From positions 14,208 to 78,207 of the forward strand of contig JAUCBJ010000764.1 of the NCBI GenBank assembly GCA_032718475.1: a stretch of 64,000 nt of DNA. Direction: 5' to 3'. A model generated the notes under the pieces. The model worked only from the letters and a program-made list of their open reading frames with translations, was not told the origin of the DNA and searched no databases. This DNA comes from Nemertoderma westbladi (lineage: Eukaryota; Animalia; Xenacoelomorpha). Positions 1,961 through 62,400 of the stretch are shown piece by piece; the first letter of the stretch is position 1, and each line of letters starts with the position of its first letter. Both the position numbers and the translations under genes were made by a program.

Positions 1961-2094
1961 TAGAAAATACTGTTTTATCTAATATTTGTCAAACTTGTTA
2001 ACGAACTTGACAAAAAAAGTGACTTACAACAAAACATAGTAGATTAATAGGCAAACTACCTAATCTCACAGAATTTAACACTTTCACAACAACA

Positions 2095-7600: not shown

Positions 7601-8110
7601 TTATATGAAACATAGAACCGAAACAAATAAAATAGGTTATACGAAATACAAAAATTTATTAACTTCTGCACTACGAAATGCAAAGAAGTTATACTTTGAA
7701 AAGTTATTTGAAAGGTATAAATACAACATAAACAAAACCTGGAATACTGTGAAATCTCTTATCAATAGGAAAAAATCAGAGAACTATCCCAAATCTTTTC
7801 TCATAAATAAACGCCTTGAAAAAGATGTAACAAATATAGCTAATGAATTTAATCGACATTATGCCTCTGTAGGCACAAATCTATCTGAAAAACTACCTAA
7901 CACCGAAATCCCAGTGTCACAATATCTGAAAAATTCACCAGCGAACTCGATGTTTTTCCACGCCATTTCCGAAAATGAATTGATAAAAACTGTCATGTCA
8001 ATGAACAATAAAAAGTCTTTAGGGCTTGATCTTGTGGATCCATCAGTTGCTAGAAAGGTGATCCATTTAATTTCTTCCCCCCTTATGAGCATTATTAATG
8101 TCATTATCCA
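4676..8110 (+). mobile_element. CR1/L2-group LINE 5' part: ORF1 (4997-5953, in-frame TGA at 5621) and ORF2 with PHD finger and APE endonuclease, truncated before RT
   Basis: ORF1 LEQYSRRNCLLIHGV, RCHRV, IIVKFVRY; PHD C-x2-C...H-x2-C...WIC-x2-C at 6203-6430; APE motifs CNIRSL, VSETW, GGG, IYRPP, MGDFNI, IDNI, SDHLPIF. Confidence 0.9.
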
Positions 8111-8326
8111 CAGGTATTATGCCAGACCAGCATTTTTTCATCCCCTGTGGTCAATAAAATGAGGACCAGTTCAATTGAATTACTAGGAGTAGCACTCAAT
8201 TCTACTTTCAGATAGCAGCTATCGAAAGAGGAGCCTTCAGGATGCCTACAGCTTCAGCTAACTGTTTACTTGCTTGCTTCATAATTAAATATTGCATTGT
8301 GTTTAATTGTTTATATTGTAACTAAC

Positions 8327-8446
8327 ATTGTGTTGCCTGTGCATCATATGATATTAGAGAAGTTAGATCTTCCCAGTCTCCAGTTCCTGTCGGGTTGTCT
8401 CTGTCAAACCATTGACTCATCAGTCCAGGACATTGGTAATTGGTAT
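8327..8446 (-). CDS. WxxW-repeat gene exon A13 (no partner B exon seen in window)
   Basis: tag|ATACC...ACACAAT|gttagt, 120 nt. Confidence 0.87.
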
Positions 8447-26400: not shown

Positions 26401-29400
26401 GGCTTGCCATCAACATCCTGGTCGGCAATGCGGCCTCCATCATGGGGACCGTGGACCCCTCTCTCACCAACAGCGAGAGACTCTACGAGGTGGTCCACGG
26501 CCCACAGTAGACCGATCAGCATATTGCAGAGTGCTACTAATACATGCAAGTATGTAAATACTTAATACCATATTGCATTACTATCACAGTGAAAATGAAG
26601 TTGTCTGGTAGTGTCAAAATGTTTAATCAGGAAATGATTACTTTATTCTACTGATAACAGAATAATTGTAATAACTTGTTTATTTAATACACAATAGCTT
26701 TCATTATAAATGTTTGTCACAGTATAAAAACATTCCAGGACAGCAGTATTTATTGTACTACATACCAGGACAGCAGTATCGTACTACATAGGGGCCTACC
26801 AGGACAGCAGTATCATACTACATACCAGGACAGCAGTATCGTACTACATACCAGGACAGCAGTATCGTACTACATACCAGGACAGCAGTATCATAATATA
26901 TACCAGGACAGCAGTATCGTACTACATACCAGGACAGCAGTATCATAATATATACCAGGACAACAGTATCGTACTACATACCAGGACAGCAGTATCATAC
27001 TACATAGGGGCCTACCAGGACAGCAGTATCATACTACATACCAGGACAGCAGTTTTGTACTACATACCAGGACAACAGTATCGTACTACATACCAGGACA
27101 GCAGTATCATACTACATAGGGGCCTACCAGGACAGCAGTATCGTACTACATACCAGGACAACAGTACCGCAATACATACCAGGACAACAGTATCATAATA
27201 CTTACCAGGACAGCAGTATCGTACTACATACCAGGACAGCAGTACCGTACTACATACCAGGACAGCAGTATTGTACTACATACCAGGACAGCAGTATCGT
27301 ACTACATACAAGGACAGCAGTATCGTACTACATACCAGGACAGCAGTATCGTACAACATACCAGGACAGCAGTATCGTACTACATACCAGGACAGCAGTA
27401 TCGTACAACATACCAGGACAGCAGTATCATACTACATACAAGGACAGCGGTATCGTACTACATACCAGGACAGCAGTATCGTACGACATACCAAGACAGC
27501 AGTATCATACTACATACCAGGACAGCAGTATCGTACGACATACCAGGACAGCAGTATCGTACTACATACCAGGACAGCAGTATCGTACAACATACCAGGA
27601 CAGCAGTATTGTACAACATACCAGGACAGCAGTATCGTACTACATACCAGGACAGCAGTATCGTACAACATACCAGGACAGCAGGCAGCGAGCAGATTGC
27701 TGAAATTAGCATGTGCCGATCTTTCCCTATTTATGGCACTTTCTTAGGCTTACTTCCTTATGCTTATCCTGGCTTATGGCCGGGATTCAGCAATGTAATA
27801 AAATGTCTTTTTGGAATTTTTATCTTGTAGTTGCCAAGGTAACCGGGTGCAAAGTTCAAATTTCGAGCGCCTGTAATTCAAGACGACAAGGGCTTCTGTT
27901 CTTGAGATTTGGTATATGAGTAAAGGGAATAAAAGTCTATCAAAATATTTTAAATTTAAATTTTTTTTTCAATCCCGTTTCCATGGTGACGGAAATTACG
28001 ATAATTTCCGAATATGACCACCAGATAGAAATTGGGTTACCATTTACGACGTATATAATTTTCAACAAACATGCCTGGTGGCTGTTGGACAGTTTAGTTT
28101 ATTGGCAAATATTGAATTTTACAAATATGATTCATAATTGACGAATTATAAAATAAAATGTAGGCAATTTTAACTTATTATTTAGACTGACAAACCGAAT
28201 AAAAATTGTGTTTTATAGAATTGGTAGACAATTTTTCAAATTTTTCATTATACTTATGTCCATGCCAACGGGAATGTAAACAAATTCAAATGTAAAATAT
28301 TTTCATAGTCTTTTATTTCCTTACCTACCAAATCTCAAGGAAAGAATCCATTGTCGCCTTGAAATACAGGTGCGCAAAGTTTGATAATTGCACATTGATG
28401 ATGTACATTGATCTTGGCAACTACAAGATAAAAATTCCAGAAAGTCATTTTATTACATTTCTATGAACCCTAGTCATCATATCCACCTAACAAAAGTAGC
28501 ATAAAATATGTTTCTAAGGAAATATTATGAAAAATGGTGCCATAAATAGGGAAAAGATCGGCCCACGCTAATTTCAGCAATCTGCTCGCTGCATGACCGG
28601 TTATTTACACTACATACCAGGACAACAGTATCGTAATACATACCAGGACAGCAGTATCGTAATACATACCAGGACAGCAGTATCATACGACATACCAGGA
28701 CAGCAGTATCGTAATACATACCAGGACAGCAGTAACGAATCTCATAATCCTGACACTGATGACCATCACTCTGATCATCGTTTTTACAAACTAAACCATC
28801 AGCTGAATACATTGATAGAGTGTCTCCAGTTGCCCAGGGGTCAATATGTGTTAGTATTGTCCTCCCTTCTGAAGCAGTGGGTTCCAAGCAATTATGTTCC
28901 TTAAACCCTAAAAAATTATTGTAGCACAATTATTGTCAAAAAGTAGTCCTTGATAAAGCAAAACTATATAAAGTAGTTTATAAAATGTAAAAATTATTAG
29001 GGATGTTGCAAATGTCATATTTTTTACATCCACGGATCCGTGGGGGGGGGGGGGGGGGGGGATAATTGTTTTTGGGGGATGAATAATTGTTTTTAGGGAA
29101 TGAATAATTGATTTTGGGGGATGAATAATTGTTTTTGGTTGGGGAATGAATAATTGATTTTGGGGGATGAATAATTGTTTTTGGGGGGTGAATAATTGTT
29201 TTTGGTGATATAGATATTCAAAATTGAGGGATGCACATTAGTGCAACAAAAAAGATATTTGGTGCTAAATATTTTTTTTGGTGTGAAATCATCTCATTTG
29301 GGCATTCTATTAGATTACTTCGGATCTTCTCCCCCCCCCCCCCCCCCCCCCCACCCCAAAAAAAAACAATCATTCATCCCTCAAAAACAATTATTCATTC

Positions 29401-32400: not shown

Positions 32401-35400
32401 TATCTTCATTTTCTTTAACCACAACAATCAGTATACTTTTTCAGCTTTGTATCCCATCCTATGTTGTTTTTATTGGTGATCATCAGACTTGCTTTGAATC
32501 GTTGTTGCAAGTAATCTTTGTAAATCAATCGATTATATGTCTTTAGATTATGTCTTTGTATGTCTTTTTTCAGTGTAAATATATTTTTAATTGAGATCGT
32601 TCTGCTGAAGCATTCTGCACACCAGGAGAGCAGTATCATACTACATGCCAGGACAGCAGTAACATACTATACACCAGGGTTGTACTTCATACCAGGACAG
32701 CAATATCATACTACATACCAGGACAGCATTAACATACTACATACCAGGACAGCAGTATCGTACTACATACCAGGACAGCAGTATCATACTACATACCAGG
32801 ACAGCAGTATTGTACTACATACCTGGACAGCAGTATCGTACTACATACCAGGACAGCAGTATCGTACTACATACCAGGACAGCAGTATTGTACTACATAC
32901 CTGGACAGCAGTATCGTACTACATACCAGGACAGCAGTATCATAATACTTACCAGGACAGCAGTATTGTACTACATACCAGGACAGCAGTATCGTACTAC
33001 ATACCAGGACAGCAGAATCATACTACATACCAGGACAGCAGTATCGTGCAACATACCAGGACAACAGTATCGTACAACATAACAGGACAGCAGTAGCATG
33101 ATATATACCAGGACAGCAGTATCGTACTACATACCAGGACAGCAGTATCGTACTACATACCAGGACAGCAGTATCGTAATACATACCAGGACAGCAGTAT
33201 CGTACTACATACCAGGACAGCAGTATCGTACTACATACCAGGACAGCTAGGGACATGGTGGCATTAGTGTCTGTCAGTGGATTGAAAAATGAGACTCCAG
33301 GAACATATTCTGGAACTGATTGCCCCAGAAATCGCTCACTGAGACCTCTAATCTCGCCAGCTGGTCTGTGGATGTGCTGTGATGATTTAACTGCTCACCC
33401 TTTAGTGGTTAGAGAACTTGCTCCACCACCATATTGTGTCATACCTCCATCAATTCATCAGTGATATCATTAGAAATCCTAGATCTTGTTGTACCTGATG
33501 GAAGGTAATCCTCCAGTGGGGCACAACATATCATGTGTAAGATAAAATCGTTCCCACTGAGATGGTACAGACATTGGGATCCCTGAACTCACATGTACCA
33601 TGTGGATGTGGATGTCCTGGAGGTAGAGCTTGGTGTTGAGGCACATAGAGGCACCTTTCTCAGTCTTCAGTCGGTGAAGCCACAGCTGGGTAAGAGATAG
33701 CTCTCCCACCATCTCTTCTCTCTTTTCCACAGAGTGGAGCAGCACCTCTACCTTCAACCTGTCCACCAACTCATTTGGTTTTCCCTGACATGTGTCATTG
33801 TTTCCTGGAGTGGCGTTGATGGCTCACAGACCTGGAGCGAATTAGTGAACTGATATGACAAGTCAGAGGTGGGCATTGGGATGCAAATACCCCTATAACG
33901 GATTAGCAGGGATAGCAACTGGCGCTCCTCTGTACACATTCCAGTACAGCAGTATCGTAATACATAACAGGACTGCAGTATCATACTACATACCAGGACA
34001 GCAGTATTGTACTACTTTCCAGGACAGCAGTATTGTACTATATACAAACACAGCAGTATCATACTACATAGTACATACCAGGACAACAGTATCGTACTAC
34101 ATACCAGGACAGCAATATCATACTATATTCCAACATTCCAGGACAGCAATATACTACATACCAGGACAGCAGTATTGTACTACATTCCAGGACAGCAGTA
34201 TCATACTACATACAAGGACAGCAGTGTCATACTACATACCAGGACAGCAGTATCATACAACATACCAGGACAGCAGTATCATAATACATACCAGGACATC
34301 AGTATCATACACTACATACCAGGACAGCAGTATTGTACTACATACCAGGACAGCAGTGTCGTACAACATACCAGGACAGCAATATCATACTATATTCCAA
34401 CATTCCAGGACAGCAATATACTACATACCAGGACAACAGTATTGTACTACATACAAGGACAGCAGTATCATACTACATACCAGGACAGCAGTATCATACA
34501 ACATACCAGGACAGCAGTATTGACTACATACCAGAGCAGCAGTATCATACTACATACCAGGACAGCAGTATCATACCCTACATACCAGGACAGCAGTATC
34601 GTACTACATACCAGGACAGCAGTATCGTACTACATACCAGGACAGCAGTATCGTAATACATACCAGGACAGCAGTATCGTACTACATACCAGGACAACAG
34701 TATCGTACTACATACCAGGACAGCTAGGGCCATGGTGGCATTAGTGTCTGTCAGTGGATTGAAAAATGAGACTCCAGGAACATATTCTGGAACTGATTGC
34801 CCCAGAAATCGCTCACTGAGACCTCTAATCTCGCCAGCTGGTCTGTGGATGTGCTGTGATGATTTAACTGCTCACCCTTTAGTGGTTAGAGAACTTGCTC
34901 CACCACAATATTGTGTCATACCTCCATCAATTCATCAGTGATATCATTAGAAATCCTAGATCTTGTTGTACCTGATGGAAGGTAATCCTCCAGTGGGGCA
35001 CAACATATCATGTGTAAGAGAAAATCGTTCCCACTGAGATGGTACAGACATTGGGATCCCTGAACTCACATGTGCCATGTGGATGTGGATGTCCTGGAGG
35101 TAGAGCTTGGTGTTGAGGCACATAGAGGCACCTTTCTCAGTCTTCAGTCCGTGAAGCCACAGCTGGGTAAGAGATAGCTCTCCCACCATATCTTCTCTCT
35201 TTTCCACAGAGTGGAGCAGCACCTCTACTTTCAACCTGTCCACCAACTCATTTGGTTTTCCCTGACATGTGTCATTGTTTCCTGGAGTGGCGCTGATGGC
35301 TCACAGACCTGGAGCGAATTAGTGAACTGATATGACAAGTCAGAGGTGGGCATTGGGATGCAAATACCCCTATAACGGATTAGCAGGGATAGCAACTGGC

Positions 35401-38400
35401 GCTCCTCTGTACACATTCCAGTACAGCAGTATCGTAATACATAACAGGACCGCAGTATCATACTACATACCAGGACAGCAGTATTGTACTACTTTCCAGG
35501 ACAGCAGTTATTGTACTATATACAAACACAGCAGTATCATACTACATAGTACATACCAGGACAACAGTATCGTACTACATACCAGGACAGCAATATCATA
35601 CTATATTCCAACATTCCAGGACAGCAATATACTACATACCAGGACAGCAGTATTGTACTACATTCCAGGACAGCAGTATCATACTACATACAAGGACAGC
35701 AGTATCATACTACATACCAGGACAGCAGTATCATACAACATACCAGGACAGCAGTATCGTAATACATACCAGGACAGCAGTATCATACCCTACATACCAG
35801 GACAGCAGTATTGTACTACATACCAGGACAGCAGTGTCGTACAACATACCAGGACAGCAATATCATACTATATTCCAACATTCCAGGACAGCAATATACT
35901 ACATACCAGGACAACAGTATTGTACTACATACCAGGACAGCAGTATCATACTACATACAAGGACAGCAGTATCATACTACATACCAGGACAGCAGTATCA
36001 TACAACATACCAGGACAGCAGTATTGACTACATACCAGGGCAGCAGTATCATACTACATACCAGGACAGCAGTATCATACCCTACATACCAGGACAGCAG
36101 TATCATACAACATACCAGGACAGCAGTATCGTACTACATACCAGGACAGCAGTATCGTACTACATACCAGGACAGCAGTATCATACAACATACCAGGACA
36201 GCAGTATCGTACTACATACCAGGACAGCAGTATCGTACTACATACCAGGACAGCAGTATCGTACTACATACCAGGACAGCAGTATTGTACTACATACCAG
36301 GACAGCAGTATCATACAACATACCAGGACAGCAGTATCGTACTACATACCAGGACAGCATTATCGTACTACATACCAGGACAGCAGTATCATACAACATA
36401 CCAGGACAGCAGTATTGACTACATACCAGGGCAGCAGTATCATGCTACATACCAGGACAGCAGTATCATACCCTACATACCAGGACAGCAGTATCATAAT
36501 ATATACCAGGACTGCAGTATCGTACTACATACCAGGACAGCAGTATCGTACTACATACCAGGACAACAGTATCGTACTACATACCAGGACAGCAGTATCA
36601 TACAACATACCAGGACAGCAGTATTGACTACATACCAGGGCAGCAGTATCGTATCTCATAATCCTGACATTGATGCCCATCACTCTGATCATCGTTTTTA
36701 CAAACTAGACCATCAGCTGAATACATAGATAGAGTGTCTCCAGTTGCCCAGGGGTCAATATGAGTTAGTATTGTCCTCCCTTCAGCAGATATTGGTTCCA
36801 AACAATTGTGTTGCATAAGCCCTGTAAAATAATAAAATTATTATAGATGAAGTGACTGCCTGAAGGAAACCAAGTCGAGATAAATTTTGATTTTTCAGTA
36901 CAGATGTGTTGAGTTTGAGTTTTTGAACTTTGAGGTTAAAGTAGCGCTAGATTGGACGTCGGGGAATGGGGATGAGCAGTACCACATTAATGAATAATAA
37001 ATTAATTTATATGATGATCTTATAATATGTGGCGTGAGGGCGTGACACCTAGAAAAGGGGTTAACTGGTCAAAATCACAATTCGAGAAAAACGCAGTTAA
37101 AGATTTAGAAGTTTAACTGAAGCTAAGCTTGAGTGAAGGTGCCGAATTTGTTGCCCCTCTTAGACTAAAATTGTATCCTCTTTCAGAATCCGAAAATACA
37201 ATTTCGCTAACACCAGCGGTTTTCGAGTTATAAGGATATCCTGTCACCCATGTTGGTACTTTTGGACTGGAAAATACCAACTTTTAGGATCACCTTCGTT
37301 CAGTGACCTTATAGAAGCTGATTTTTGGATTTTTAGAGTGCTGATATCATTATTAACACTTCCCAATGAATTTCCATCATGAAATATATAATTTTTATGA
37401 AAATTTTTATATATTTTTTTTGGTCCCCAAAAGGGGACCAAATGTGCAGGTAGCTCGAAATTTTCGCCATTTTCAAAGTCGATATATTAGCCATATCTTC
37501 GACCCTACTAAGGTTTTCGCATGCGCTGATTCCATTGGTAACATTCATAATTTGGTTAGATTGTCCAAATGGGCGCAAAAATGAAAAGACCCACTTACTT
37601 GCACTTTTCAAAAATCGAAGGTTCAAAAATGCAATTTGGATTGTTCCAATCAATTTTATTTTGTTCCCATCGTGATCAGCACCCCAAAAAACCCCATTGG
37701 AGTGAAATTTCAATCGGATAAACGATCTGGCAATGTTGCAATTTTTTGGACTACTTAAAAGTAAAAGTAAAGTAAATTTTCTTCGGCCGCTAGGCCAGGG
37801 ATTACGCACAAAGTCTGACGACTTATTTCCAGTGCGGTCCCCCCAGAACTTTACTCCCCAGAGGAAACTCCAGTACTCATTTAGCTACCACTTAAGGATG
37901 CAAGGCAGAGATGCGCCCTGGCTGGTCCCTTTAAAGCATTCGTGCCGAAACGAAAACTGCCCTGGCCCGTGTGAGGATCGAACCCACGACCTACGGGAGA
38001 TGTGAATTCAATGCAACCACTACACCAAGGTGGAACCTACTTGCACTTTTCGTTCCAAAATTTGGCCAAAAACATAAAAATTATCTTGATCAGACAAAAT
38101 TTTTTTAATTTCCAGTGGAATTAGAACCCCAAAACACCCAACTACACATAGAATTGACATCAGAAAATAAATTAAACTACTTCATTTATAGTTAGTTAGT
38201 TAGTTATTTATAATTAGCGTGATTTCACTTTCACCTCTGGAAATGGGGTCTCGGAAATGGATTTTTGATGGACATGAATACTTCAATTTCATTTTTCGAA
38301 TACTTAAAATAACGTTCAAGGCAAGTATTATAGCGCATTATAAAGGTAAATAAATTTTCTATTCACTTTTATGAATAACTCAAAATCTTCCAGATGACCA

Positions 38401-41400: not shown

Positions 41401-44400
41401 TTATAATCATCATTATCATGAATTTTCCCAACTTTCTTCCATGTAGAGATACAGTTCAATACATGTCTCTCTACATATGGAAAATCGTATACTTCTGAAG
41501 ATTTTATCATACAAACTCTAAACTTATAACTTTTTAACTTCTAATTTGACTTTAACCATTTACTGTTTCAACTAACCAAATAATTAATCAAAATATATAC
41601 GTATCTGTAATGTTAAAACAACAGTTCTTGAATCTGTAGGGGAAACAAATATCTACATAACGATTATCTACATACCAGGACAGCAGTATTATACTACATA
41701 CCAGGACAGCAGTATAATACTACAAACCAAGACAGCAGTATCATACTACATACCAGGACAGCAGTATCATATACTACATACCAGGACAGCAGTATCATAT
41801 ACTACATACCAGGACAGCAGTATCATACTACATACCAGGACAGCAGTATCGTACAACATACCAGGACAGCAGTATCGTACAACATACCAGGACAACAGTA
41901 ACGAATCTCATAATCCTGACACTGATGTCCATCATTCTGATCATCGTTTTTACAAACTAGACCATCAGCTGAATACATAGATAAGTTATCTCCAGTTGCC
42001 CAGGGGTCAATATGAGTTAGTATTGTCCTTCCTTCAGCAGATATTGGTTCCAAACAATTGTGTTGCATAAACCCTGTAAGATGGACATTATCCAGAATAA
42101 TTATATAGTTAAATTGTCTTGTCTGCAATTAATATAGTTTAAGAGTTTCAACATATTACTGTGATTAGAATAGTATATATCTGCTTGAGTTGAATGGTAG
42201 ATACAATGATTTGAATAAGTCGATAAGTTTTTGTTATCCTTATTGACATTCAGAAAATTAACACTTTCATTACTGGTTTCTGTAATGAATTTGATCCCTG
42301 GCACCAAATATTTCAAAATTGTTAATAGTTCCTTTGGTTTTATTATTACATCCTCAGTTACAACGTGCCCATCATCTAGGGAACGTACACCACCCAACAG
42401 CTTTATATAAACATACTAAGTTTTAAGTAAGTTTTTTGAAACATTATCTATCATTCAATATAATGAATGGGAGAATCTTCTGGGCTCATTAAGCCAAAGA
42501 TCAACCAGTCTACAGGTCAATCCAGGACCTCCTGATTGGAAGCCAGGAAATGTCACCAATAGACAACCTGCAATATATTCGAAGTATGTTATTATTGTAT
42601 ATTTTAAGGAGTTCTATCCAATATATTATTGAGATATAATCAAAATGAATATTAAGGTGGATGGATAGATAGCACTACTGGTGAAAGTTAGATAGTACCA
42701 CTAAGAACGAGGTATTTGGGGAGCTGTTGTCATCAAAAATGATTCTCTCACACACTACATTAGTTTGATTGTTTGTCTGAGAACAAAATCCATGCTGTTA
42801 AGGATTATGTATGTTTATGTCGAGGATTTGGGGGCATTTATGTTTTTGCATTGTGTTTCTAGCAGTGGAAAAATAAATGTTAATTATCTTCTATTATTCA
42901 TTGTCAACAAAATAGTATATAAAACGTACATTTAAAATAGTAAGACAGGTAGGACGGTATTATAGGGAATATGGGTTTTCTTTATGGAGTTATTACAGCC
43001 CTGGTGACTAACTGAGAAAACAAAACAGGTTCTTTATTATCAATTAATTTCTGCCACTAGGGCCATCTTCAGGATATAATCAAAACAAAACGGACAGAAA
43101 CCACACCGACTACATACAGTTACTTATATTTACATACATGTTACAATAAAAAAGTACAAAAATAGGCCTAGGTAAGTACTGAAGGTAGGACGGTATATCA
43201 GACAGACAGACATCATCAATTAGATGTAATACATGTTACCTTTTATGATACATGGATACAGTAAAAATTTTCAAGGCATATTTAACCAAAATCAATATTC
43301 TGTTTAATCTGTTTAATCTTAAATCTTGTTAAATCCTGTTATCTTAAATCAAATAGTAACTTTGTTCTCTGAAAAAAGAGCTTTCGAATGAGTCTAAAAT
43401 GAACTTCGTAGGACCACTAGAACTGGAGATTATACAATTTGAAGATCCCCGATGAGCGATAAGTCTATTCAGTGTAATCCCATATAGTCGCATAATGGAG
43501 TCCCGTCATTGTTCTGGAGACTTAGAGTTGTCTTATAAACTGACCAGTAGGTCCTATAATTATAAAAAAAATACCTTCTCAATTAAAATTGTATGCTCTT
43601 TCTCGTGAAGACATCCAATAAGCACCACTGAGCACAGAAATTTGCAGAAATTGAATGCAAACCCCAAACTTCATCTCCTTTACCAATATCGCGATATATC
43701 GGAGCCAGTATCTTCTTATTATATCATTATATTATTAATATATTGTTGTTTTATACTAACATTGTTCAGCATTATATTATTAATATATATTTATATATAT
43801 TATTATATCATTGTATTATTAATATATTGTTGTTTTATACTAACATTGTTCAGCTTGGCTGTTGAGGGATATTAGTGAATTCAGATCCTCCCAATCACCA
43901 GTAGCTGTAGGGTCATCTCTGTCATACCATTGGCTCATAGGCCCTTCACATTCTTGAGGATGTATGATGAAATCTAACAAATGAATTTAAATTAAATAAA
44001 TATTAATATATTAAATATTAATATTAAAATATTAATAAACAATAAATATTACAAAATTTCCTTTTATTTTATTTTTATTATAGTTTTTGTTTAACTATAT
44101 TTAACATTTTAGTAATTTTAGTGTTATGACATGAGGGTATTAATGTACCAAGCGAATACATCAAAGGAGGTTTACATAAATAAATGTGGGTATTTAAGGT
44201 GGAGGTGGAATAATGCCTTTTACCATACAATGATATATATGTAATTTTGTTACATTATGTCAACTTATCCGCATTCAGGAGTGGGTTGCTGGATGCACTA
44301 TTAGTGGAATTTCATGCAATATATGACACATACTAGAATGTTGTTTATTTATTAAATAGCATAAATGACCTTCAGCAAACAATAATGCAAACTTGCAATC

Positions 44401-47400: not shown

Positions 47401-50400
47401 CTGTAGTCTGTTTGAGTCGGGACTCTTTCTGCGCCTTGTAGATGTCATTTCGGCACTTCTGAATTTTGTTGTCAGTCCAGGGGGCCCGTTTCCTGTTTCA
47501 AGGGTATACAGGAACTGTTTCTGCAGCTGCTAACTTATCTGCCTCTATGAAGGCAGTATAGCCCTCACAGTGATCTGCCGCCTCAGAGGCAAGAACCTCA
47601 TACCTGTTGCTCAGCTGTAGTGTGAAGCTGGATCTCACACTTGGCTGTTGCAACAGAGAGGACCAGTCATGCCCCGGCAAGGCAGATTTCGTTGTTCTGC
47701 TAGCACGCAGACTAAGTCTTACCTTGGCCACAATAAGGTGGTGATCACTGGAGAAGGGTCGTAGTGTAAATGTATAGAGCTCCTGTATTTCCTACGAAAC
47801 AGGATATGGTCTATCTGGGACTTGTGACCTCCTGAAGATGGACGGAATTTCGGTTAACACTATTGCTATAGACCCAGGGCTATGTAGGTGATTGATGCAG
47901 ACTTGCATTAAAGTCTCCCAGGAATGTTAAGAATGCATGCTGATCCACTCCATCAGTAGCTGCTTATAGATTCTGGTAGAAATTTTCCACCTCCTCTACA
48001 GGAGCAACACTAGTTGGAGAGTAGCACACAATCAGAAAACCACCTTAGGAAACTTCTTAGCCAGTCTTCCAGAACATGAGAAGTGGCAACTGATGATGCG
48101 GTTAGAGATTTGGTCTATTTTGCCCAATGCTGCATGTACAGTTGGATTCCTCAATAGACCAATTCCACCATTGCCACTATCATCTGCTGAAGCGAGGGTG
48201 AGTCGCCAACCGCCCCCCATGTCCTTAATCAGAACCTCATCAGTCTGTCCAGTCTGCATTCGGTGCTCTTGAACACCCACTGCACTAAGAGAAAGCTTAT
48301 CTGCTAAGGCAGTCAGCTCACCTTGTCGCATTGTGGACCCGAGTGTTAGGGTGTTTACTGGTGGCTTGCCTCAGATTCACCAATGGCTTTGTTGGTCGGG
48401 GTGGAACATGAGAGTAGCCTCCAACTCCAGAATCCCTCTCCCCCTCACAATCTGGCCTCCCTGGTGACCCAGGGTTTGGGCCAGAAATGTCATCAGGAAA
48501 GGGACTCAAAGAATTGTTTGCCGCTCTCTCTCCAGTAGGGGGTGAGACAGGCAGCCGGTCAGGAGATAACTGACGGCTGTGAGGCCGATTGTGTCCAGTC
48601 ATTCCACTGGTCTATAGTGGCTGGACCTCCGCATTACTAATGTAATCCATAGTGGGGAGTGGATATTCAAAAACTACTGTGGAACAAAAACAGTTCAATA
48701 TGTTCTGTACTATATTAAATTGGATATTCAAAATCTACTGTGGAACAAAAACAGTTCAATATGTTCCATACTATATTAAAGTGGATATTCAAAAACTACT
48801 GTGGAACAAAAACAGTTCAATATGATCCATACTATCTTAATGCAGATATTCAATAACTACAGCGAACTAAAATCCGTGCACAAGTTCAAAATTGAAAGAA
48901 ACATTCATTACTGTGCATGAGAATAGGTTTAAATCTTCATAATCCTAATCCTATTTTAGAGTTCTTTTCATAAACATAATACATCGCCTGATTTCTGGTG
49001 AAGTTTTAGTTACAAAATTCACTCGCAATTCTTTAAAAACTTGTTTTGTGATTCTTTGCCCATCCAATTGCAAATATTACTTTCTAACATGTTATTCTCT
49101 TAGTCGCATTCATCACCTTCGTATTCTTGGTTACAACAGCTAAATTGCATGTCTAATGGAGGTGGTACCAACTTTATGTATAGATTTTGGGTAAACATGT
49201 TTCTACAATCTTTGCATCTGTTGAGTGATGATTGAGTACTTTTCTCCAGCCTTTGTTAGGAAAACGAATGGACCCTCCCTTTTATAGGAATAGAGCTCAT
49301 ATCAATTAATATCTTATATATATATATATATATTAATATCGACATAATTAATATCTGCGACATTGCAGCATTCAGTATTAATCCTGTAATATATTTTACT
49401 GCTACTGCTATTAAATAAGTACTGGTACTAAAGTGCTGGTAATCAGACAATAGACTGATTGAATAAACTTATTAGGAAACATGCCGGAGATGGTTAAGGT
49501 ACCACCATACTGGTATTAATTAATGAATTGTGGATGATTATTTTGATGAGTGTACTGTACTCTGACAATCCTGTAAAATTTACAGGACCTTTGAAAAGTG
49601 TTAGGCCTTTTGCTGTAAAAAAAATTTCATCGAGGGCACAATCTCGATATCATTCACTACCTATGCACACCATCTACACCTGTACCCCAGTAGCACGCGT
49701 CCTAATCACTGAAACATGGTAACTGAAACAGAAGGTCGTGCTACGGGCCTTCGGGGGCTTCGAACAATTAAAATAGGCAAGCTATTTACTCTTCTGCTAT
49801 ATCTCTTCTAGCACCTATAAATGAACATGCTGACGTCCGATTTTGGCTGACCCCCTCCCCTCATCAGCACGTCATCAGATTTTCCCAACCCCCCTCGCCC
49901 CCTAAAGTGCTGACGTCATACTTGGACGGCCCCTAGTAGTAGGATGTAGGAGGATGTAGGGGATGTAGTAGTAGGAATAGGACTGTTACTAAAATGAACT
50001 AACTAGCAGACAATCGAAGTACAGCAGTATCACACGGCTCTGGGCTCTCGCTGTGGTGATTTTAACCTGATGAAACCAAATTTCCACCATGGCCTCTTGG
50101 CTACATGTTGTCAGATTGCCATTAAATCCACCAAAGCCCCTATGTTTTAAATCGAGGGGTACTGAAAACACCACTTTTTATATTTTTAAAAGGTGCTTTG
50201 CCTCCATTATATATACATATATAACATTTATGTAATATTTGATCAAAGTAACTAACTGTATTGTCCTTGAAAAGAAGACAAGTTCTCGAAAACGATGAGA
50301 AGCAAATATTAATTTAGAAACAAGGGGAGTCCCCAGTGTTGAACCTATCTTTCCTAGCATGTACCGAAATACCCTTAAGAAGACATGTTCTATTAGTAAT

Positions 50401-53400
50401 ATAGAATGGCTATGAATTAATCACACTTAATTTTAAATTAGTTCACAAATAAACTTGAGGTGATGTTTTGAAATGAAAGATCAAAACCGTTATACATGGT
50501 CTATATGCATGATCAATAGGATTCCTCCCTTTTTGGAGAGTTATGCATGTAGTTGTTTATTAACAATTGGTAATAAATAGTTTTAATATCTGTTAAATAA
50601 TATACGTTGTTAAAATATTGTGCTTTACTGTATATATTAAAATATTGTGCTTTACTATATATATCCAACCGGTATACAATTTAACGTAGTTTGTTAAATT
50701 TGTCCAGTATTCATCATTAATTCATCATTGAGTATTTCACCAAAGTACTGTGATAAGTTAAGATAATCGATAATGTAACAAAATATTTATTGTTTTGTAT
50801 TTATAGTGCCTACCTGGACAACAGTATCGTATCTCATAATCGCTACACTGATGTCCATCACTCTGATCATCGTTTTTACAAACTAGACCATCAGCTGAAT
50901 ACATAGATAGAGTGTCTCCAGTTGTCCAGGGGTCAATATGTGTGTTAACTGTCCTTCCTTCAGAAGATGTTGGCTCCAAGCAGTGGTGTTGAGACAACCC
51001 TGTAAAATAATTGGAAGCTTTCGCTATAAGAAACACCAGAAGGCTTAAATAATGGGAGAATAAATAATTAAACTTCAACATCAGGATGAGACTCATCTTC
51101 AGGATATAATTAAATATAATATAAATGGGTACCCGACCTACCAGATCAGGAGGGGGGTTGGACCTCGAAATGTAAGTGGTTCGAACTTGGCCTTAACTTT
51201 TAGGGAATTATAGCTCTGCTGCCCATTCCTGCCAGCCCACGTTACTAAAATCTATCTGGGGTTTGGCTGGAAACTCAATCAGACTCTAGAGGTCATGATA
51301 CCTTGGATCTTTTCATGCAGCATTTAGGCATAGCAATCGAGATATTTTTATTTTATATCTTAGAAATTTTTAGATATATTAGTCAATAATAACAACCTAA
51401 GCAAGGAAACCAGCCATTACTTAGCATTAGTTGTTCACCCATGGACAAGATGATTATTAGATCTTCCAGCTGTTCGTGGGGGACTATTATCTGATTAAGA
51501 ACTACTTTTCCCTCGGGAACCAAAGTAAGATCATTTCGGTTTGGACTTAACAGGAAAGGAGCAGGTTACATTGACAGTGGTTTTTAATCAAACAATAAAT
51601 TAAACAAGATTTCGTTTTTTTTTTGCCAATTTACACCAAAGATTACTTCTTTTAATTGTGACCAACTTGCGTAACTATCCGGCCCAAATATTGCTCAGCA
51701 TTCTAGAACAGGAAGGAGTAGTCTGCTATCATTTTGCAGAAGCAGTTGGTAATACAATCATAATGGTATCTATGAATATAATATACGCAGTTTATAGCAC
51801 TTTTATAACAAGGGAACAAATAGAGTCAATTATTTCTTTGATTCAGTCATGATTGCCCATAAAAATAAGAAACCGGAACATGAACTCTGACAGGTTCAGC
51901 ACAAAACTGAAAATTGTAATCAGTGATACAGTCATTATGTGTAAACATTCTATTTGATGCTTCCCATTACAAGTCCTATCATTCCCTTGCATATGGTACA
52001 TAATATCCTGCAACCATGACAATAGCTCAAACATCCACCTATCTTACATATCTATAGAGACCACTCTGTATCTGATTTTGTATTCAAAAATTATATATCA
52101 TACTCAACTTATAGTCAGATGCAACTATTATAAACAATGAAAATTTAAACAAAAAAAAAAGTTTAAATTCAGTAAAAATTATGTTGTTGGAAGAAGCATT
52201 TTTTGTTACTTGAAATTCAACTATTCCATACAATTCTAGTTAATTTAATATTTCACTTAAGGCCCGTTCACATCCAACGGAATGGTACACGGCGTGGTGT
52301 ACCGCAGGGCCAGCGGTACACCGCTGACTGTGAACGACACAACAGGTAGATGTGCGCTAAACCGCGCGGTTTACTGCAGCCCATTTAAACAATGTTAAAA
52401 CAATTAATGTAATTTCCTGTTGAATTCACAGTCTACAGATAGACAATCAGTTACCGCAAGGGTACCGTTGGGTGTGAACGGGCTCTGGGTAGTGTACTGC
52501 TGGCTTACCGCTTCAATACCGCCAGACTACTTTACCACTCACGCACCGTTGGATGTGAACGGGGCTTTACGCAATTAATTTGGCCTTTAGTCATCATACT
52601 TAAATATAGCATTACATTGTGTTTAATTGTTTATATTGTAACTAACATTGTGTTGCCTGTGCATCATATAATATTAGAGATGAGAGATCTTCCCAGTCTC
52701 CAGTTCCTGTTGGGTTGTCTCTGTCAAACCATTGACTCATCAGTCCAGGACATTGGTAATTGGTCCCTACAAAATAAAATCATAAACATATAAATACAAA
52801 TTTAATTATAAATAAAGTTTAGTAATGTCACTTTATTAACCATCTGGTTATGCATTTCGCATAACTCTTTAGACATTAGGTTGAGTAATTCTACTGTACT
52901 AACTCTCCAGACAGACGTTAGGTTGAGTAATTCTAATGTACTAAATATATGCATTTACAAGAATGTGCTAATCTATAAGAAAATTCATGAGTGTCAACAT
53001 TTTACAGTGTTCTTTATTTAAGCCCCATAACCAATAAAGGTTGTATTAATGCTACAAATATGACAAAATCTATGTACATAGTCATTGCATATTAGTCCAT
53101 TGTTTGCTGTGTAGTTGTGTGTCACAGTTCTCTTGAGGATCTGCCCTTGCCTTAGTAGGAGGCCAGGCATTGTTCGGACGGAACCGTCCTTGTCCGCAGT
53201 TGAATACATGTTTACTACATTGTAACGATCGGAGATGGGCTATGCTTATTTTATTGTTGATGTAAATTGATTGTAAATTGGTTATTAAAGATAGATTAGT
53301 AGATTAAGATTAGATTACTAGATAAAATAGTTTGCTGTTGCAGTTGTAAAAGTTAGTATAAAATAAACTTGCAATAAATTACTTTTAAAAAATACAGCTT

Positions 53401-56400
53401 TTCTTAAAAGTGGATGAAAGTTAAAGTTAAATATGTGCCAGAAATTTGATTAAATTATTAACCAATATACTCCTCCATCCCCTAACAAGGGCCACCACAT
53501 ATTAAAAATATAGTACATTCATACTTTCACAAGATGGATGCACGAATTATATATGGTTTCACAAAGTCCTCCGTGCCTTTCTATGATGATATCACACATT
53601 TTGCATCCGGGTTTCCTACCTTTTTTCACACAAAAAGAATTAGGATCTAATTGATTTCTAGTTAATATTTTTGAAGTGATTTCGGTTGTTTTTGTGCTAT
53701 AACAAGGCGTTTGTTTCTACGATTTAATTTGAGTTTGGGATCATCCTGTAGTAAATTATAAGCTGGTTTGACATGAGTTTCTATTTACATCGAACCTGTC
53801 TTTACACTGGATAGATTTAATTAAAGCTGAGGCCGGCAAAAACATGATCGATGGATGTATGTTTGTTTGTATGTATCGGGTATCCACCAATATATAAATA
53901 TAACCAATATATAATATAACCACCAAATGGCTTCAAACCACTTGCATGTATTGGAAAATTGTAAACACGACTATTTATTAATTACTATCTAGTTGTTGAA
54001 TAAAAAATGTTCGGAATGATTAAATGTGCTATATTCGAAATATGAGCATATTATCAACTTTATGGAACGCGAAATTAAATACTCACAACTACACTTTTAC
54101 AGCTGAACAACATTTCACGAAATGTTGTCAATTGGAGACGTACTTTAATTATATCGTTAATTATTGTTCTATCTGTATTCAGTGTAATGTCACGCAGTAC
54201 ATCATTTATATGTCGTATCTGTAGGGCCTATTGTCATCATTATAATACTGTCATCAACTCAGGCTAAGCTCAATTGTAATGTAAATGCTTATATTATTCA
54301 GTTTTGTATAACTGAAACGTTTACAACAGCTGTCGATTAAACTAGTAAAACCAGAAAACTGAACCAGGATGCCAGCCGCTAAAATCAAATGGATTGCACA
54401 AATTTTCTGCAAACACAACTTTCAAGTCTTGGTTTCAAAATCTTCGAGAGATTTTCGAAGAACACGTACCAATGAAGGAAAGATTAAGGAGGGCTAATCC
54501 GAAACATAAGTGCATAAGCAACAGTGATTACGAGCACATCCAGTTATTGCATAACAGAAACGCTGTAAAGAAGCTGTTTATAAGAAACGCAAGACTGAAG
54601 CAAATAGGGAATCACTTAATGTGGCACGTCTAGCATTGTTAAATGGTCTGAAAGAATCTGGAAGGAAATATTATCGGGAATTTATTGAGGAGAACTCAAC
54701 AAACTCGAGGCGACTCTGGAAACAATTTAAACAGTTATTGGGTCAGTGTGGAAGAACTATTCTACCTACAACTGTTGAAAATGATTCAGAGCTTGCTGAA
54801 AAATTTTCTAATTTTTTCCAGACCAAGGTTTGTGATATTGTGGCTACCTTTAACCCAATCTCAATATTAGTCACTGATCTACCTAAACTTTATCGCAAAA
54901 CGTTCAGTGCCTTTAAACCACTGACACAAACAGACGTGCTCAAGATTATAAGAGGGATTTCAAATGCAACTACTAACTTAGACTGTATGCCGACAACTCT
55001 ATTTAAATCGATTGCTCCAACTGTGCTATAGCCTTTAACTGCTTATATAAATGATGTGCTACAAACTGGTAATTTTCCCCAATTCCTCAAACTCGCTGTG
55101 GTTAGACCCATTCTCAAAAAGCCGAACCTGTCCAGTGAAGTTTTAAAAAATTACCGCCCTGTCACCAATATTCCTTTCATGGCCAAAATTATAGAAAAGG
55201 CTATCCTAATTCAAATTGAAAAGCAACTCTGTTTGAACAATAACCAATCTGGTTATAGACAACATTTTTCAACAGAAATGGTAAATGTGTTCGTACAGAA
55301 CACAATATTGCAAGCTATGGATAAGCAGGATATCATTCTTTGCTCTTTTTGGACTTGAGCGCTGCTTTTGACACGGTGAATCATATTTTGTTGGCTAAAA
55401 ACTTCAGTACTGCTTCGGCATAGAGGGTAATGCTCTGTCCTTATTCATTATGCACAATTATAAGTAATAAATTACGGATTATTTAAAATTAATTAATCTA
55501 CTGTAAATGTTTATATTAATGTATAATATTATGTAATTGTATGTAATATGTTAATGTAATTGTAAATGTAAATGTTATCTGAATTGGGGCTGTCTAAAAA
55601 AAGGAAACGGAATGGGGTTAAAAGGTTGGGCATTAAGTATAATATAGAGCAAAGTAGAGGCCATCAGAATGGCCGGTCAATCAGTTCTTGGTACTTCCGG
55701 ATCTTAAGGGATTCGGCCTCCTCAACCACACAGCCTCCAGTCACTGTACTCATGGTGATGTGGATGGGCATGAACAGGTCCGTGATGGTGGAGTCCCATA
55801 TATGAGTGTGTTTGGGGCTCCATGGAATGAGAGTGACTCCATCGACACGCTTCCCGTCTCCCTGGAACATCCCTGCTGGTTCGAGAGCACACGGCGCAGG
55901 TGAGCAACCAGCACACAATGTCGTTAACCATCAAGTGGCGTGTATGGTGGCTGGCCCTCCTCATGAAAGCCAGGCCATCACGCGCATCTACTTAGATGTC
56001 TTTTCCACAATGTGCACAGCTGTGGAGTTCGGTGATTTTACAACCAGGGTGGGTGGCTACAGATATCCGGAACTGAGCGTCAGTCAGTTTCAGGCCAAGT
56101 GACCTAACAGGCATGGAATCCAGATGGCCTCCAAATAAATTGAATGCGTTTCGTTATTTGCCTCGACTTATATTATTCACTCCATGGACGAGTTATTCTT
56201 TTATTAGCTGCAGTAGACCAATTCCCCACAGGTCATACCTTCTCAAAAAGGCAGTTGTACCAGAGGTCAGATTATTTGATGTTCGCAAACCCACAGCAAC
56301 CCTTCATATCAAGGGCAGATTGGAGGGGCTGGTGTATTTGTGGATAATTATAAAATCGAGTAAATTAAAGAATAAAGTGGATAATTTGTGGTACAATGGG

Positions 56401-59400
56401 GTTCAGGATTACAGGACAAAGGAGATTTAGTCTGTACATATCATTCTTCGTAATTCGTATTACCAAAACTCATGTATATAACCATATGTAGCTGGTCAGC
56501 TTGTGTAGTAGATAAAGTTGGTCGAATAGGAAAAACATAAAAAGAACAATAGGAAACTATATTGGAATCATTTTGTGGTTTAATAAGATACATATCTATC
56601 TATCCATGTATTTTAAATGTCCAAAACTATTTGATTCTCTTATATTCTTCTTATTATATTCTTATTCTATTTTAATTACTAAGTAATATTACTATTTCAA
56701 CTACATTCCAGACATACCAGGGCAGCAGAAACGAATCTCATAATCCTGACACTGACGTCCACTACTCTGGGCGCTGTTTTTACAAATAAGACCATCTGCT
56801 GAATACATTGAAAGATTATCTCCAGTAGACCAGGCGTCAATATGTGTCTGAATGGTTCTAGCCTCAGATGATATTGGTTCCAAGCAATTGTGTTGAGAAA
56901 ACCCTGTACAATATATATTATTAACATGAGATAATATTCAAAACCTACATATTTATAAATATGAACAAACAATTAAAACACATATATATGTATATATTTA
57001 ATAAATATTAAATGATGGACGAATAAAAGGCGTGATAGCTTAGTTGGTTGAGCGCTGGGCCTGCAATCTATTGGTTGTAGGTTCAGCCCCGCTCAGCCTA
57101 TCGGGATCGATAAAATGAGTACCAGTTAAATAACTGGGAGCAAATCTTGGATAAATAATAATTTATAGTAATAATAATAGATAAGTAGTAGTATTAAATA
57201 GTTAGTTGTTAATATTTTTCTCACATTGGTCAGCTTGGGCATTTGTGGACATGAGTGAATTGAGATCCTCCCAGTCACCAGTTCCTGAAGGATTGTCTCT
57301 GTCATACCATTGACTAATAGGTCCGTCGCAATCATCATGTTGTTGCTCTTCTATATTTTTTACATAAAAAATAAAATTAGTAATTATATAAAATTAGAAT
57401 TAGAATTTTCTATATTTTTATTTATTATATATATATGACTCGAATAAGCGACTCTGCGGTTTTTACACGGAATAGACTTATCAGTCATCGTAGATCTTCA
57501 AGATGTATAATCTCCAGTTCTAGTGGTCGTATGAAGTTCATTTTAGGCTCATTCGAAAGCTCTTTTCTCAGAGAACAAAGTTACCATTGATTTAAGATAA
57601 AATGGTTGTGAAGCAACATAACATGAATTTGGGTTATGATTGCTCAGGCAGCTTTCAAGAGCTTGCCAAACCAAATGCTAACTAGATCCCTTCTTATAAC
57701 AAATGGTAACTTGGTTCTCTGAGAAAAGAGCTTTCGAATGAGCATAAAACGAACTTTGTACGACCACTACAACTGGAGATTATACATTTTGAAGATCTCC
57801 AATGACCGATAAGTATATTCCGTGTAATCCCGCAAAGACCACAGAGTCGCTTATTTGGAGACTTGAAGTTGTCTTATAATCTGATCAGTAGGTCCAGTAA
57901 TCATATTTTATTTAATATCGTGGCACATTTTTTAAGCGTTTAAGCCCAGGTACTTGTTGTATTATTTTTAGGTATCAGTTACCTTAAGAATTGCAGTAAA
58001 ATTTTGATAAATTTAAAAATTGGATGCGACTATACCTAGATATTATAATGAATTTATTTCCCATTTAGTTTCCATTCGAATTAGTTTCCCATTGTTCATT
58101 TTGTTTGGTTTGTTTTTCGCAAATTTATGTAGAATTTCTATGAATAAATATATGATCTGCAAAATAAAGTTTTATTTACTTTATTTAGTATAAATAAGGC
58201 AACATAGAATCCAAAAAATGTGGTTCAGATTGATTGGCAATTCATTTTGGGTTTTATCCTAGATTGAATGCTTTTCAACACTAAGTATCTATTAACATGA
58301 AAAGCACCATTGGAAATGTACTGTTTTGTTTGCTACACAATTTGTTTGTCATGGCCATCCATAGTAAGGGTCTGAAATTAACCAACACTTCCAATTCCGA
58401 ATATACCAATTGTAATTCTGATGTTTATCTTTAAACCTGGGTTTCCTTTCTTCAGGACCTCGCGGAAGTGCATCTCCTAATGTATCAGTAAGTTTTTTAT
58501 TACTTTAAAGTTGTGAATAGTGTTATCACAGTCCTCATTATACCTAATTTCGAAATGGTACATGCAGCAACTAAGGCCCGCCTCATGCAGAGCAACTTGT
58601 TGCTGGACCCCCTCATACACAGAAAATTATTTTCTCTCCCTTGTGATTGCATCTTTGTGAAAACAATTGATATCATTCCAAAATATGCAACAGAGTAATT
58701 TCAGAGCAACTACCAGGCTGTCAGGGGACCAAATCATCTGGCATTGGTGGACTGTTCCCGTGCCTGTTCCCCTGGTGAGGGTGCGGTACCTGTACTGTAC
58801 CAGCACCGATTACAGACAGTGTGGTACAGTCTAATAATTTAGTCCCATAAATTAGCCACACCTAGCCAAGACAGGATTGGTACCACTGCACCACACACAT
58901 ATCAATGAGAGCACAAGGTCAGCAACCGGTTCCACCAACATCCCTACTAACCCCTTAGCGTTGTGTTAACTGCTTAGAGCACCAGAGGGACCGATTTTTA
59001 TTGCGATTACCAACATTTTTTGCCAGTTTTCATTAAAATAATAACACTCACAATAACAAATCAAAATAAATAAAGAATCCAGACGTACCGGGACAACAGA
59101 AACGAATCTCGTAATCGTGACACTGACGTCCACTACTCTGTTCAATGTTTTTACAAATAAGACCATCAGCTGAATACATAGAAATACTATCTCCAGTAGC
59201 CCAGGCATCGATTTGTGTTTGTATTGTTCGAGCCTCGGATGATATTGGTTCCAAGCAATTGTTTTGAGAAAACCCTGTAGAAATAATGTAATGTAAATAA
59301 TGTGAAAGTATTATTATTATTAAATTATGTAAATAATAATATAAATATAATGTATGTTCAGTTTCAGTGTGTCAGATACTGCTGTGCCCAACAAAAAGTT

Positions 59401-62400
59401 ATAAAGATACTGAATTCCACACCATTTTTATGACCAATTTAGGTATCATGTTCCAGAACATTTTTAAAGAACAAACAATATCACACCTAGAAAACAATGT
59501 TATAGAATGAACAATAAATTAGCATTCAAGAACATTACCTTTTATTTAAATTAATAGCTAACATGTTCAAGATCATTAAAAAATTACATTAAACAAGCTA
59601 AAAAAATTTTAACATTATGGCTAGTGGTGTGCAACAAATAGGGTATTCCCTATATTTAACCTTTATCGAGATTTGATAAAATTTGTTACAATCATATTAT
59701 CATAATATTATCTAACATTGTTCAGCTTGTGCATTTGTTGACAGGAGTGAATTAAGATCCTCCCAGTCTCCAGTTCCTGACGGATTGTCTCTGTCATACC
59801 ACTGACTCATAGGTCCACTGCATTCATCGTGTTGTTGCTCTTCTATATTTTTTGCATAAAAAATAAAATAGTAATTATATAAAATTAGAATTAAACAGAC
59901 AATAGTTATGCAGAGTAAAGTTTCTCAAAGATATTGGTTTATATGTTCCTTTATGGAGATTCTTGGGATAGTATTCCCACACAAATCTTCTCTTAAAACT
60001 GTGTCAGTAGCTCGTTCTTTTTGGCGGATGTGTGTGTAGGCCGACATATGTTGAAGAAGATCATCAATATGGGATAATCGATGCGTTTAAAGAAAACCTC
60101 CACACCAGCAAATGGAATCATGTACTACTATTAAATGTTTAATGTAATAATTTGACTACAAATATATATGAATATTCCTAAGTATGTATATCACTACAAT
60201 ATGTACTACACTATTACTACGGACAAGTGTTTGTCAATTCCTTCAATCAAATCCAAACATACATGTCATATAATTTCAGAGAAATTTGAACAGAAAAAGA
60301 TAGGGTGCAAAGACACTCTTATCTTTAGTAATATAGATGATTAATGTTATAAAATATATGGTACTCTACTACATGATTTGACCTTGAATTGAAAAACGGT
60401 GACTTGAACCTAAGGCTAACTTGAACCGAAACTCAAATATTTCTATAATGTTTGATCCCACAGAGAGTAGATAGGAAGGATTTAATATAATTCCTATTGC
60501 ATAGGGTAAGAGTACATACCAGGACAGCAGTATAGTAATACATACCAGGACAACAGTATCGTATTTCATAATCATGACAGTAAGCTCCACTACTCTGATC
60601 ACTGTTTTTGCAAATGAGACCATCGCCTGAATACATAGCTAAAATGTCGCCAGTTGCTGTGGCATCAATATTAGATTGTGTAGTTCTTGCTTCAGAAGAT
60701 TCTGGATCCAAGCATTTATGGCTCGTAAACCCTGCAAGTAAAATATCCATGTTCTTTTTCAACATGCTTGAATATTAAGTCAGTAAGACATTAACCAAGA
60801 AAGTAATGATAACTAAGTCAGGGTCGCATAATATTTATGGGACAAAATTTATGAATAAAGTCGTAAAATAATTAAAGACAATTTACTTGTGGGACGCAAT
60901 GATGATAATAGTCATTACTAAATATATTATTATAATAATTTAAAACCAAAACTGTAGTATGCAGATACTCACATTGTTCCGCTTGGCTATTATATAGCAA
61001 CAGCGAATTAAGATCCTCCCAGTCTCCAGTGCCTGATGGATTGTCCCTGTCGTACCATTGACTTATTGGGCCATCACATTGATCTACACCCCTCTCTGTT
61101 AAATTAAATAATCGAGTTTACCACATTATCAATTTATAACATAATCAAAATATATATTATTCCTCAAACAGCGGAGAATTTGATTCCACTCAAAGGATCC
61201 TGTTCCATCTAGATGGAACTGCACTCACAGGATCCTATGCTATCTATGTGGGACTCCACTCACAAGATCCTATGCTATCTATGTGGGATTCCACTCACAG
61301 AATCCTATGCTATCTATGTGGGACTCCACTCACAGGATGCTATGCTATCTATGTGGGACTCCACTCACAGGATCCTATGCTATCTATGTGGGACTCCACT
61401 CACAGGATCCTATGCTATCTGTGTGGGACTCCACTCACCGGATCCTATCCTATCTATGTGGGACTCCACTCACAGGATCCTATGCTATCTATGTGGGACT
61501 CCACTCACAGGATCCTATGCTATCTATGCGGGACTCCACTCACAGGATCCTATGCTATCTATGTGGGACTCCACTCACAGCATCCTATGCTATCTATGTG
61601 GGTCTCCACTCACAGGTTCCTATGATATCTATGTCAGACTCCACTCACAGGATCATATGCTATCTATGTGGGACTCCACTTAGAGGTTCCTATGCCATCT
61701 ATATGGGACTCCGCTAACAGGATCCTATGCTATCTGAGTGGGACACAACTCACAGGATCATATGCTATCTGTGTGAGACTCCACTCACAGGATCCTATGC
61801 TATCTATGTGGGACTCCACTCACAGGATCCTATGATATCTATGTGGGACTCCACTCACAGGATCATATGATATCTATGTGGGATTCCACTCACAGGATCC
61901 TATGCTATCTATGTGGGACTCCACTCACAGGATCCTATGCTATCTATGTGGGACTCCACTCACAGGATCATATGATATCTATGTGGGATTCCACTCACAG
62001 GATCCTATGCTATCTATGTGGGACTCCACTCACAGGATCCTATGCTATCTATGTGGGACTCCACTCACAGGATCCTATGCTATATATGTAGGACTCCACT
62101 CACAGGATCCTATGCTATCTATGTGGGACTCCACTCACAGGATCCTATGCTATATATGTGGGACTCCACTCACAGGATCCTATGCTATCTATGTGGGACT
62201 CCACTCACAGGATCCTATGCTATCTATGTGGGACTCCACTCACAGGATCCTATGCTATCTATGTGGGACTCCACTCACAGGATCATATGATATCTATGTG
62301 GGATTCCACTCACAGGATCCTATGCTATCTATGTGGGACTCCACTCACAGGATCCTATGCTATCTATGTGGGACTCCACTCACAGGATCCTATGCTATCT

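Follow-up and report, generated by a model that had tools for sequence, protein, structure and literature searches.

Tandem copies of a 26-bp exon-intron junction follow four exons of a WxxW-domain gene in Nemertoderma westbladi and have probably spread between paralogous junctions

Minisatellites that span an exon-intron junction and reiterate its splice signal are known from lancelets and mammals. The accessible text of two lancelet reports describes "mirage" minisatellites, composed of 10-160 bp units lying across exon-intron boundaries, with the splice signal kept in many, not all, copies, in Adh3, the globins BflGb6 and BflGb9, TnC, and PGBD5 (PMC3087553, PMC3902484); regular splicing is undisturbed, and units within a cluster evolve in concert (PMC3087553). 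In human F7, a 37-bp variable number tandem repeat in intron 7 spans the exon 7 donor, and its pseudo-sites are functional while the most upstream site alone is used, according to the accessible part of PMC1557585. That part also lists, as a secondary account, 25 pseudo-sites in 6-16 (IFI6) and 15-20 units in CBS intron 13, each with two additional donors in use, along with the LMNB2 and PDGF intron 4 minisatellites, where the authentic donor alone is used. The CBS repeat is written c.1444_1467+7(16_21) in the accessible text of PMC2630376, and the accessible portion of PMC10078293 holds nothing on junction-spanning repeats. Here, we analyze a 64,000-nucleotide stretch of Nemertoderma westbladi DNA (assembly GCA_032718475.1, contig JAUCBJ010000764.1, positions 14,208 to 78,207, forward strand; the window), in which a gene encoding tandem WxxW domains carries arrays of a 26-bp unit behind four of its exons, B2, B6, B7, and B8. 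Judged from their sequence, these arrays are a large example of the junction-spanning class. We hold with good confidence that they represent tandem copies of a B-exon/intron junction, likely neutral, likely skipped in favor of the first donor, and probably spread by non-allelic exchange.

Four defining features of the class recur at this locus: tandem copies spanning the boundary, a unit size within the 10-160 bp range, a splice signal kept in many but not all units, and a homogenized interior flanked by divergent boundary units. The arrays differ from the lancelet mirages, as far as the accessible text of those reports goes, in reaching 100 units behind a single donor (3-6 units in BflGb6), in having one unit common to three or four paralogous exons, and in being interrupted by insertions; regular splicing is an observation in lancelets and a prediction for the present arrays. 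F7 shares a boundary-spanning first unit and an authentic donor followed by identical pseudo-donors, but its repeat, in the accessible account, comprises 5-9 units at one junction with 4 exonic bases per unit. The donors of 6-16, CBS, LMNB2, and PDGF are likewise reiterated 10-25 times, and the CBS unit, with 24 exonic and 7 intronic bases, is the nearest in make-up to the 18 exonic and 8 intronic bases found here; all four are described there as single-junction arrays. The class is already known and usually harmless. This locus stands out for its size, with 100 units behind a single donor, and for the likely exchange between paralogous junctions; no description of such exchange was found in the open-licence literature, itself weak evidence of absence.

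The host gene, its array-bearing exons, and the components of the arrays are arranged as follows.

8327-63698, minus strand: host gene, in which 13 A exons and 12 B exons alternate, every one of them open.
60546-60731, minus strand: exon B2, of 186 nt and phase 1-1, which encodes the second portion of a WxxW domain and has its donor at the 3' end; PF13330 score 47.3 bits.
60512-60537, minus strand: single extra unit after B2, with 2 mismatches to the consensus and 3 to B2's own junction; it may be an independent duplication.
41888-42073, minus strand: exon B6, with three synonymous differences between its end and the unit.
41668-41879, minus strand: B6 array, 8 extra units, 1.3% from the consensus.
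36636-36821, minus strand: exon B7, whose junction matches 25 of the 26 bases of the unit; the likely source.
35411-36628, minus strand: B7 array block a, 46 units, two with B7's own exon allele at -5.
34724-35410, minus strand: B7 insert copy 1, decayed, ~690 bp, interrupting the B7 array.
33934-34733, minus strand: B7 array block b, 30 units, within a 1477-bp tandem duplication.
33247-33933, minus strand: B7 insert copy 2, identical to copy 1 at 679 of 687 positions.
32615-33256, minus strand: B7 array block c, with 24 units and decay at the distal end.
28722-28907, minus strand: exon B8, with two synonymous differences between its end and the unit.
28610-28713, minus strand: B8 array block a, 4 units; of 134 extra donors, only the third one here (last exonic base 28644) is in frame and stop-free.
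27685-28609, no strand assigned: element in the B8 array, 925 bp, with nested terminal inverted repeats, resembling a miniature inverted-repeat transposable element.
26728-27691, minus strand: B8 array block b, 36 units.

The initial annotation, made from the sequence alone, had placed about 150 extra donors behind these four exons, and the arrays prove real, with 149 extra units distributed as 1 after B2, 8 after B6, 100 after B7, and 40 after B8. A search with the exact 26-mer at up to 3 mismatches returns 128 matches, every one on the minus strand, and 0 when repeated on 100 shuffles. The anchored scan, using an 18-nt core with up to 4 mismatches, yields 161 matches, none on the plus strand, corresponding to the 12 authentic B donors and the 149 extra units. 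As had been claimed, the arrays start exactly at the donors of B2, B6, B7, and B8, where the first unit spans the boundary; units are absent from the rest of the window; and the other eight B exons are array-free, with B5 and B9 using GTAGG donors. The unit's donor, CTG/GTATGT, does fit the U1 consensus, its 9-mer matching 7 of 9 positions of MAG/GURAGU, as many as in the four authentic donors. GT is intact in 134 of the 149 extra units and lost in 15, and 111 retain the full donor 9-mer; GT-dead and divergent units are concentrated distally, and units lie 1.3-4.7% from the consensus. A scan of metagenomes with 23 nt of the unit gave 0 matches, a result uninformative for an animal repeat.

The same annotation proposed that each unit acts as a competing donor or U1 decoy, with neutral slippage as the null hypothesis. 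Its own test, which asks for higher conservation at donor positions than elsewhere in the unit, gives no support to that function. Across 145 untruncated units (four of the 149, truncated by insertions or indels, were dropped), 33 mismatches fall on the 6 sites +1 to +6 and 37 on the 8 sites -11 to -4, that is, 5.5 and 4.6 per site. Counting distinct haplotypes gives 21 mismatches over the 6 donor sites and 21 over the 8 exonic sites, and removing the duplicated block, which leaves 116 units, gives 25 and 24. Extra donor conservation is absent in all four schemes (every unit counted, distinct haplotypes, distinct alleles, and the duplicated block left out), with one-sided p values of 0.54-0.94. 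Neutral repeat turnover is the best fit. Some considerations count against reading the arrays as wholly neutral: the test has little power against weak selection; in the B7a and B8 arrays the proximal and distal halves carry 1 and 16 donor changes against 6 and 14 non-donor changes (two rows dropped from this count); and this hint of better donor retention near the exon reaches p=0.097, moving to p=0.49 once B7c is added, among units that are not independent of one another. Weak donor-specific selection on the units is compatible with the data.

These figures bear directly on a regulated donor ladder, in which distal units would compete with the authentic donor and copy number would set how large a share of transcripts is shifted in frame, degraded, or cut short at a domain boundary. 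The 111 units identical to the authentic 9-mer, the slightly better proximal retention, and the read-through product of B7, P-G-M-stop, two codons past the domain, are what such a ladder would show, and the two extra donors used in 6-16 and CBS provide a precedent in the secondary account of PMC1557585. The ladder is nevertheless unlikely: donor-specific conservation is missing, copy number spans 1 to 100 with insertions tolerated, predicted accessibility is equal for units and authentic donors (opening energy about 5 kcal/mol in both), and identical, even stronger F7 pseudo-sites do not compete, as stated in the accessible part of the same source.

Units might instead bind U1 small nuclear ribonucleoprotein without splicing, lowering premature polyadenylation or altering exon skipping in long, insertion-rich introns. 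Such loading, which we regard as highly improbable, draws on the density of 7-of-9 U1 matches, on AATAAA/ATTAAA hexamers downstream in all four array introns, and on an unrelated 35-bp minisatellite with 35 occurrences of GTGAGT on the sense strand. The U1-pairing positions, however, show no extra conservation, the introns of greatest length, those of 6.8 kb behind B5 and B9, are array-free, and the hexamers are expected in AT-rich introns anyway.

A hairpin over the donor was also considered as the cause of silencing or origin and is rejected: a single unit folds weakly (-3.6 kcal/mol as RNA, -0.3 as DNA), a run of five units gains no stability over shuffled-unit arrays (32% of 300 shuffles fold at least as low), and opening energies are similar for authentic and extra donors.

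Distal donor use would be almost entirely unproductive. The 26-bp unit length is not a multiple of three, and the first stop on intron read-through lies at +6 for B7, +63 for B6, +111 for B2, and +195 for B8. Only one of the 134 GT-intact extra donors (B8, +78) joins the next A exon in frame and stop-free, the other 133 giving a frameshift or stop; the +78 product after B8 is alone in being predicted stable to nonsense-mediated decay. The arrays therefore cannot diversify the protein, which would confine any function to unproductive splicing, truncation, or U1 loading. The layout AG, 18 nt, GT, present in 83 of the 149 units, could alternatively define a symmetric phase-1 micro-exon adding V-R-Y-C-C-P, an extra cysteine pair between domains, and VRYCCP is encoded by 37. 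Twenty-nine of these 83 units contain a stop, mostly through CpG-to-TpG decay, a change seen more often than the harmless one to CpA, and the AT/pyrimidine-rich acceptor context found at real exons is missing from the units. Micro-exon coding is rejected on the stops, leaving the cassette extremely improbable. The CpG concerned, at -16/-15, is the most variable site of the unit (CG in 61, TG in 56, and CA in 16 of 136 units), in a window with a CpG observed-to-expected ratio of 0.57; such variability at a CpG is the usual sign of neutral methylation decay.

Regarding origin, the unit does derive from a B exon-intron junction: its consensus reads R-Y-C-C-P followed by a donor, and the array-bearing junctions are the nearest to it, with 1, 1, 2, and 3 mismatches to the consensus against 3-6 in the other eight (p=0.005). 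The origin claim needs one correction. Compared with the unit over 26 nt, the authentic junctions of B7, B2, B8, and B6 carry 1, 2, 3, and 4 mismatches; no authentic junction is identical to the unit, which is therefore not simply each exon's own junction.

Exchange between paralogous junctions would account for this pattern. The block consensuses of B6, B7, and B8 are identical over -14 to +6, while synonymous divergence (dS) among the three exons is 0.34-0.54; at that divergence, 20 neutral sites would all agree with a probability of 0.002 to 0.00006. The flanking introns align in none of the six B6/B7/B8 comparisons, and the B6 and B8 exon alleles at -17 and -14 occur in 0 of 149 units, with B7's own allele at -5 present in two B7 units. 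A shared consensus despite this exon divergence, together with non-aligning introns and the missing B6 and B8 alleles, makes exchange between paralogous junctions likely. In addition, two rare compound variants are common to B7 and B8, with the same neighboring unit in both, and the exon ends of B6, B7, and B8 are 89-93% identical to one another, B2 reaching 73-75% to the three. In the simplest account the array is young and was probably born at B7, which holds the largest array and a 25/26 junction match; the same picture would result if older arrays kept converting one another or if the B6 and B8 exon ends were converted later, and all of these need non-allelic exchange.

Several points temper this interpretation. 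Poor intron alignment is general in the host gene, each pairwise dS value comes from 10-14 synonymous differences, the extent to which B7 and B8 share alleles is borderline (6 of 8, p=0.056, with mutation bias ignored and five rows dropped), and a mosaic exon-end test gives p=0.059. Furthermore, a 4-nt match located 26 nt upstream of the donor, which might have assisted the initial duplication, is present at 9 of 12 junctions (missing in B5, B9, and B10), 5 of these 9 are array-free, and the match does not sit exactly at the unit boundary. As the sole cause, microhomology is rejected, with the match at 9 of 12 junctions and arrays at 4; it is permissive at best.

Neutral arrays could also have formed without exchange, either arising in place at each donor or descending from one array that predates the B6/B7/B8 duplication and persisted. 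The weak grouping of B6, B7, and B8 in the exon tree (bootstrap 50-58) and the presence of the 26-nt match in most junctions lend themselves to this account, which is plausible for B2, whose single unit may be independent of the B6-B8 arrays. For the larger arrays, an in-place origin predicts own-exon alleles in B6 and B8, and 0 of 48 units carry them; an old single origin predicts consensus drift or units roughly 15-25% diverged, and 1.3-4.7% is seen. We consider the no-exchange account quite improbable.

The preferred reading, neutral turnover with exchange, would proceed in four steps. A 26-bp duplication across a donor, most likely at B7, would have been possibly aided by the 4-nt match, which links Tyr-Glu codons and the donor at 26-nt spacing. 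Slippage or unequal exchange would then have expanded the array, followed by two insertions and the 1477-bp duplication. An already diversified stretch may next have been exchanged with the 89-93% identical exon ends of B8 and B6, or continuing conversion may have kept the arrays alike. Finally, the exon-proximal donor would be the one in use, by analogy with F7, and products of distal donors, which frameshift or stop, would likely be removed by nonsense-mediated decay, so the arrays would be tolerated. The use of two downstream donors in 6-16 and CBS (PMC1557585, secondary account) weighs against strict first-donor use, and the F7 observation, obtained from 50 constructs in mammalian cells in the accessible account, may not carry over to this animal. 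In a stronger form, for which we see a moderately favorable case, the repeat would be a junction-homing minisatellite that copies itself to paralogous boundaries via exon-end homology and rewrites synonymous sites of the adjoining exon. If true, such exchange would provide a route for a junction repeat to colonize a tandem-domain gene. That homing is further coupled to copy number serving as a heritable dial on transcripts truncated or degraded at the domain boundaries of a tandem-domain secreted protein is decidedly unlikely. The locus offers a natural dose series, with 0, 1, 8, 40, and 100 donor copies behind near-identical exons of a single transcript, suited to asking whether the first donor wins outside mammals and lancelets, at 100 copies.

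Neither of the two large arrays is continuous. The B7 array is divided into 46, 30, and 24 units by two copies of the ~690-bp insert, which we take to be retroelement-like and which lies within the 1477-bp duplication that copied 30 units too; the B8 array is divided into 4 and 36 units around the 925-bp inverted-repeat element. Tandem-domain genes and minisatellites are prone to assembly error, and an assembler might have inflated or misplaced the arrays. The 145 units comprise 37 distinct haplotypes, array-specific variants among them, and 8 of 687 sites distinguish the duplicated insert copies, rendering the probability of an artifact practically negligible.

Two further repeats occur in the host gene. 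An 84-bp tandem duplication across the A6 donor (43720-43860, minus strand) is independent of the 26-bp unit, matches at 21 of 22 junction bases, is present in two copies, and leads to an immediate stop on read-through. The 35-bp minisatellite, with 39 copies in the B1-A2 intron (61185-62551), spans no junction, and its 35 sense-strand occurrences of the consensus donor hexamer GTGAGT may be chance. The two together indicate that such repeats arise readily in this gene.

All junctions of the host gene are phase 1, and the frames of all A and B exons are open. Each A and B exon pair encodes one WxxW domain (Mucin2_WxxW, PF13330): both tested B exons score above the gathering cut-off of 22.4 bits (42 and 47.3 bits), and both tested A exons match the start of the model, alone falling below the cut-off. 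The ratio of nonsynonymous to synonymous divergence (dN/dS) is 0.06-0.09 among B6, B7, and B8 (B1 was excluded for a 3-nt gap), indicating that the array-bearing exons are under purifying selection. A profile search across all six frames of the 64-kb window finds no further B exons. The 8.3 kb beyond A13 (window positions 1-8326) are without a B exon, and the gene runs past the window or ends differently. In the B4-A5 intron (53060-53125, minus strand), the last part of the B-exon profile is matched weakly (E 0.01), probably by chance, possibly by a very decayed exon remnant.

A word-indexed protein search with exon B7 against longer proteins returns no match at E≤0.001; the profile search returns 777 at E≤0.001. 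The names available for 10 of the 150 listed are mucin-like or uncharacterized, from sharks, rays, bony fish, lancelet, and acorn worm. The ranking of this search favors many-repeat proteins, and no orthologue is therefore identified by it. Tandem Mucin2_WxxW proteins such as si:dkey-205h13.2 and mucin-like proteins share the repeated WxxW domains, but the host gene differs in having M or I in place of the first Trp of the motif.

Regions 8327-12441 and 52647-59842 form a higher-order repeat of the gene, with A11, A12, and A13 being 99, 96, and 95% identical to A3, A4, and A5 over the 111 nt compared. This homology stops within tens of intron bases, which suggests exon-limited homogenization. 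Eight of the 13 A donors have T at +3 (GTTAG; for example, 59717, 52647, and 43845, minus strand), a less common donor type retained among paralogues. Decayed retroelement-like stretches, judged by eye, are located in the long introns at 17500-21100 (minus strand), 46300-48400 (minus strand), 4400-7700, and 55700-56200 (minus strand).

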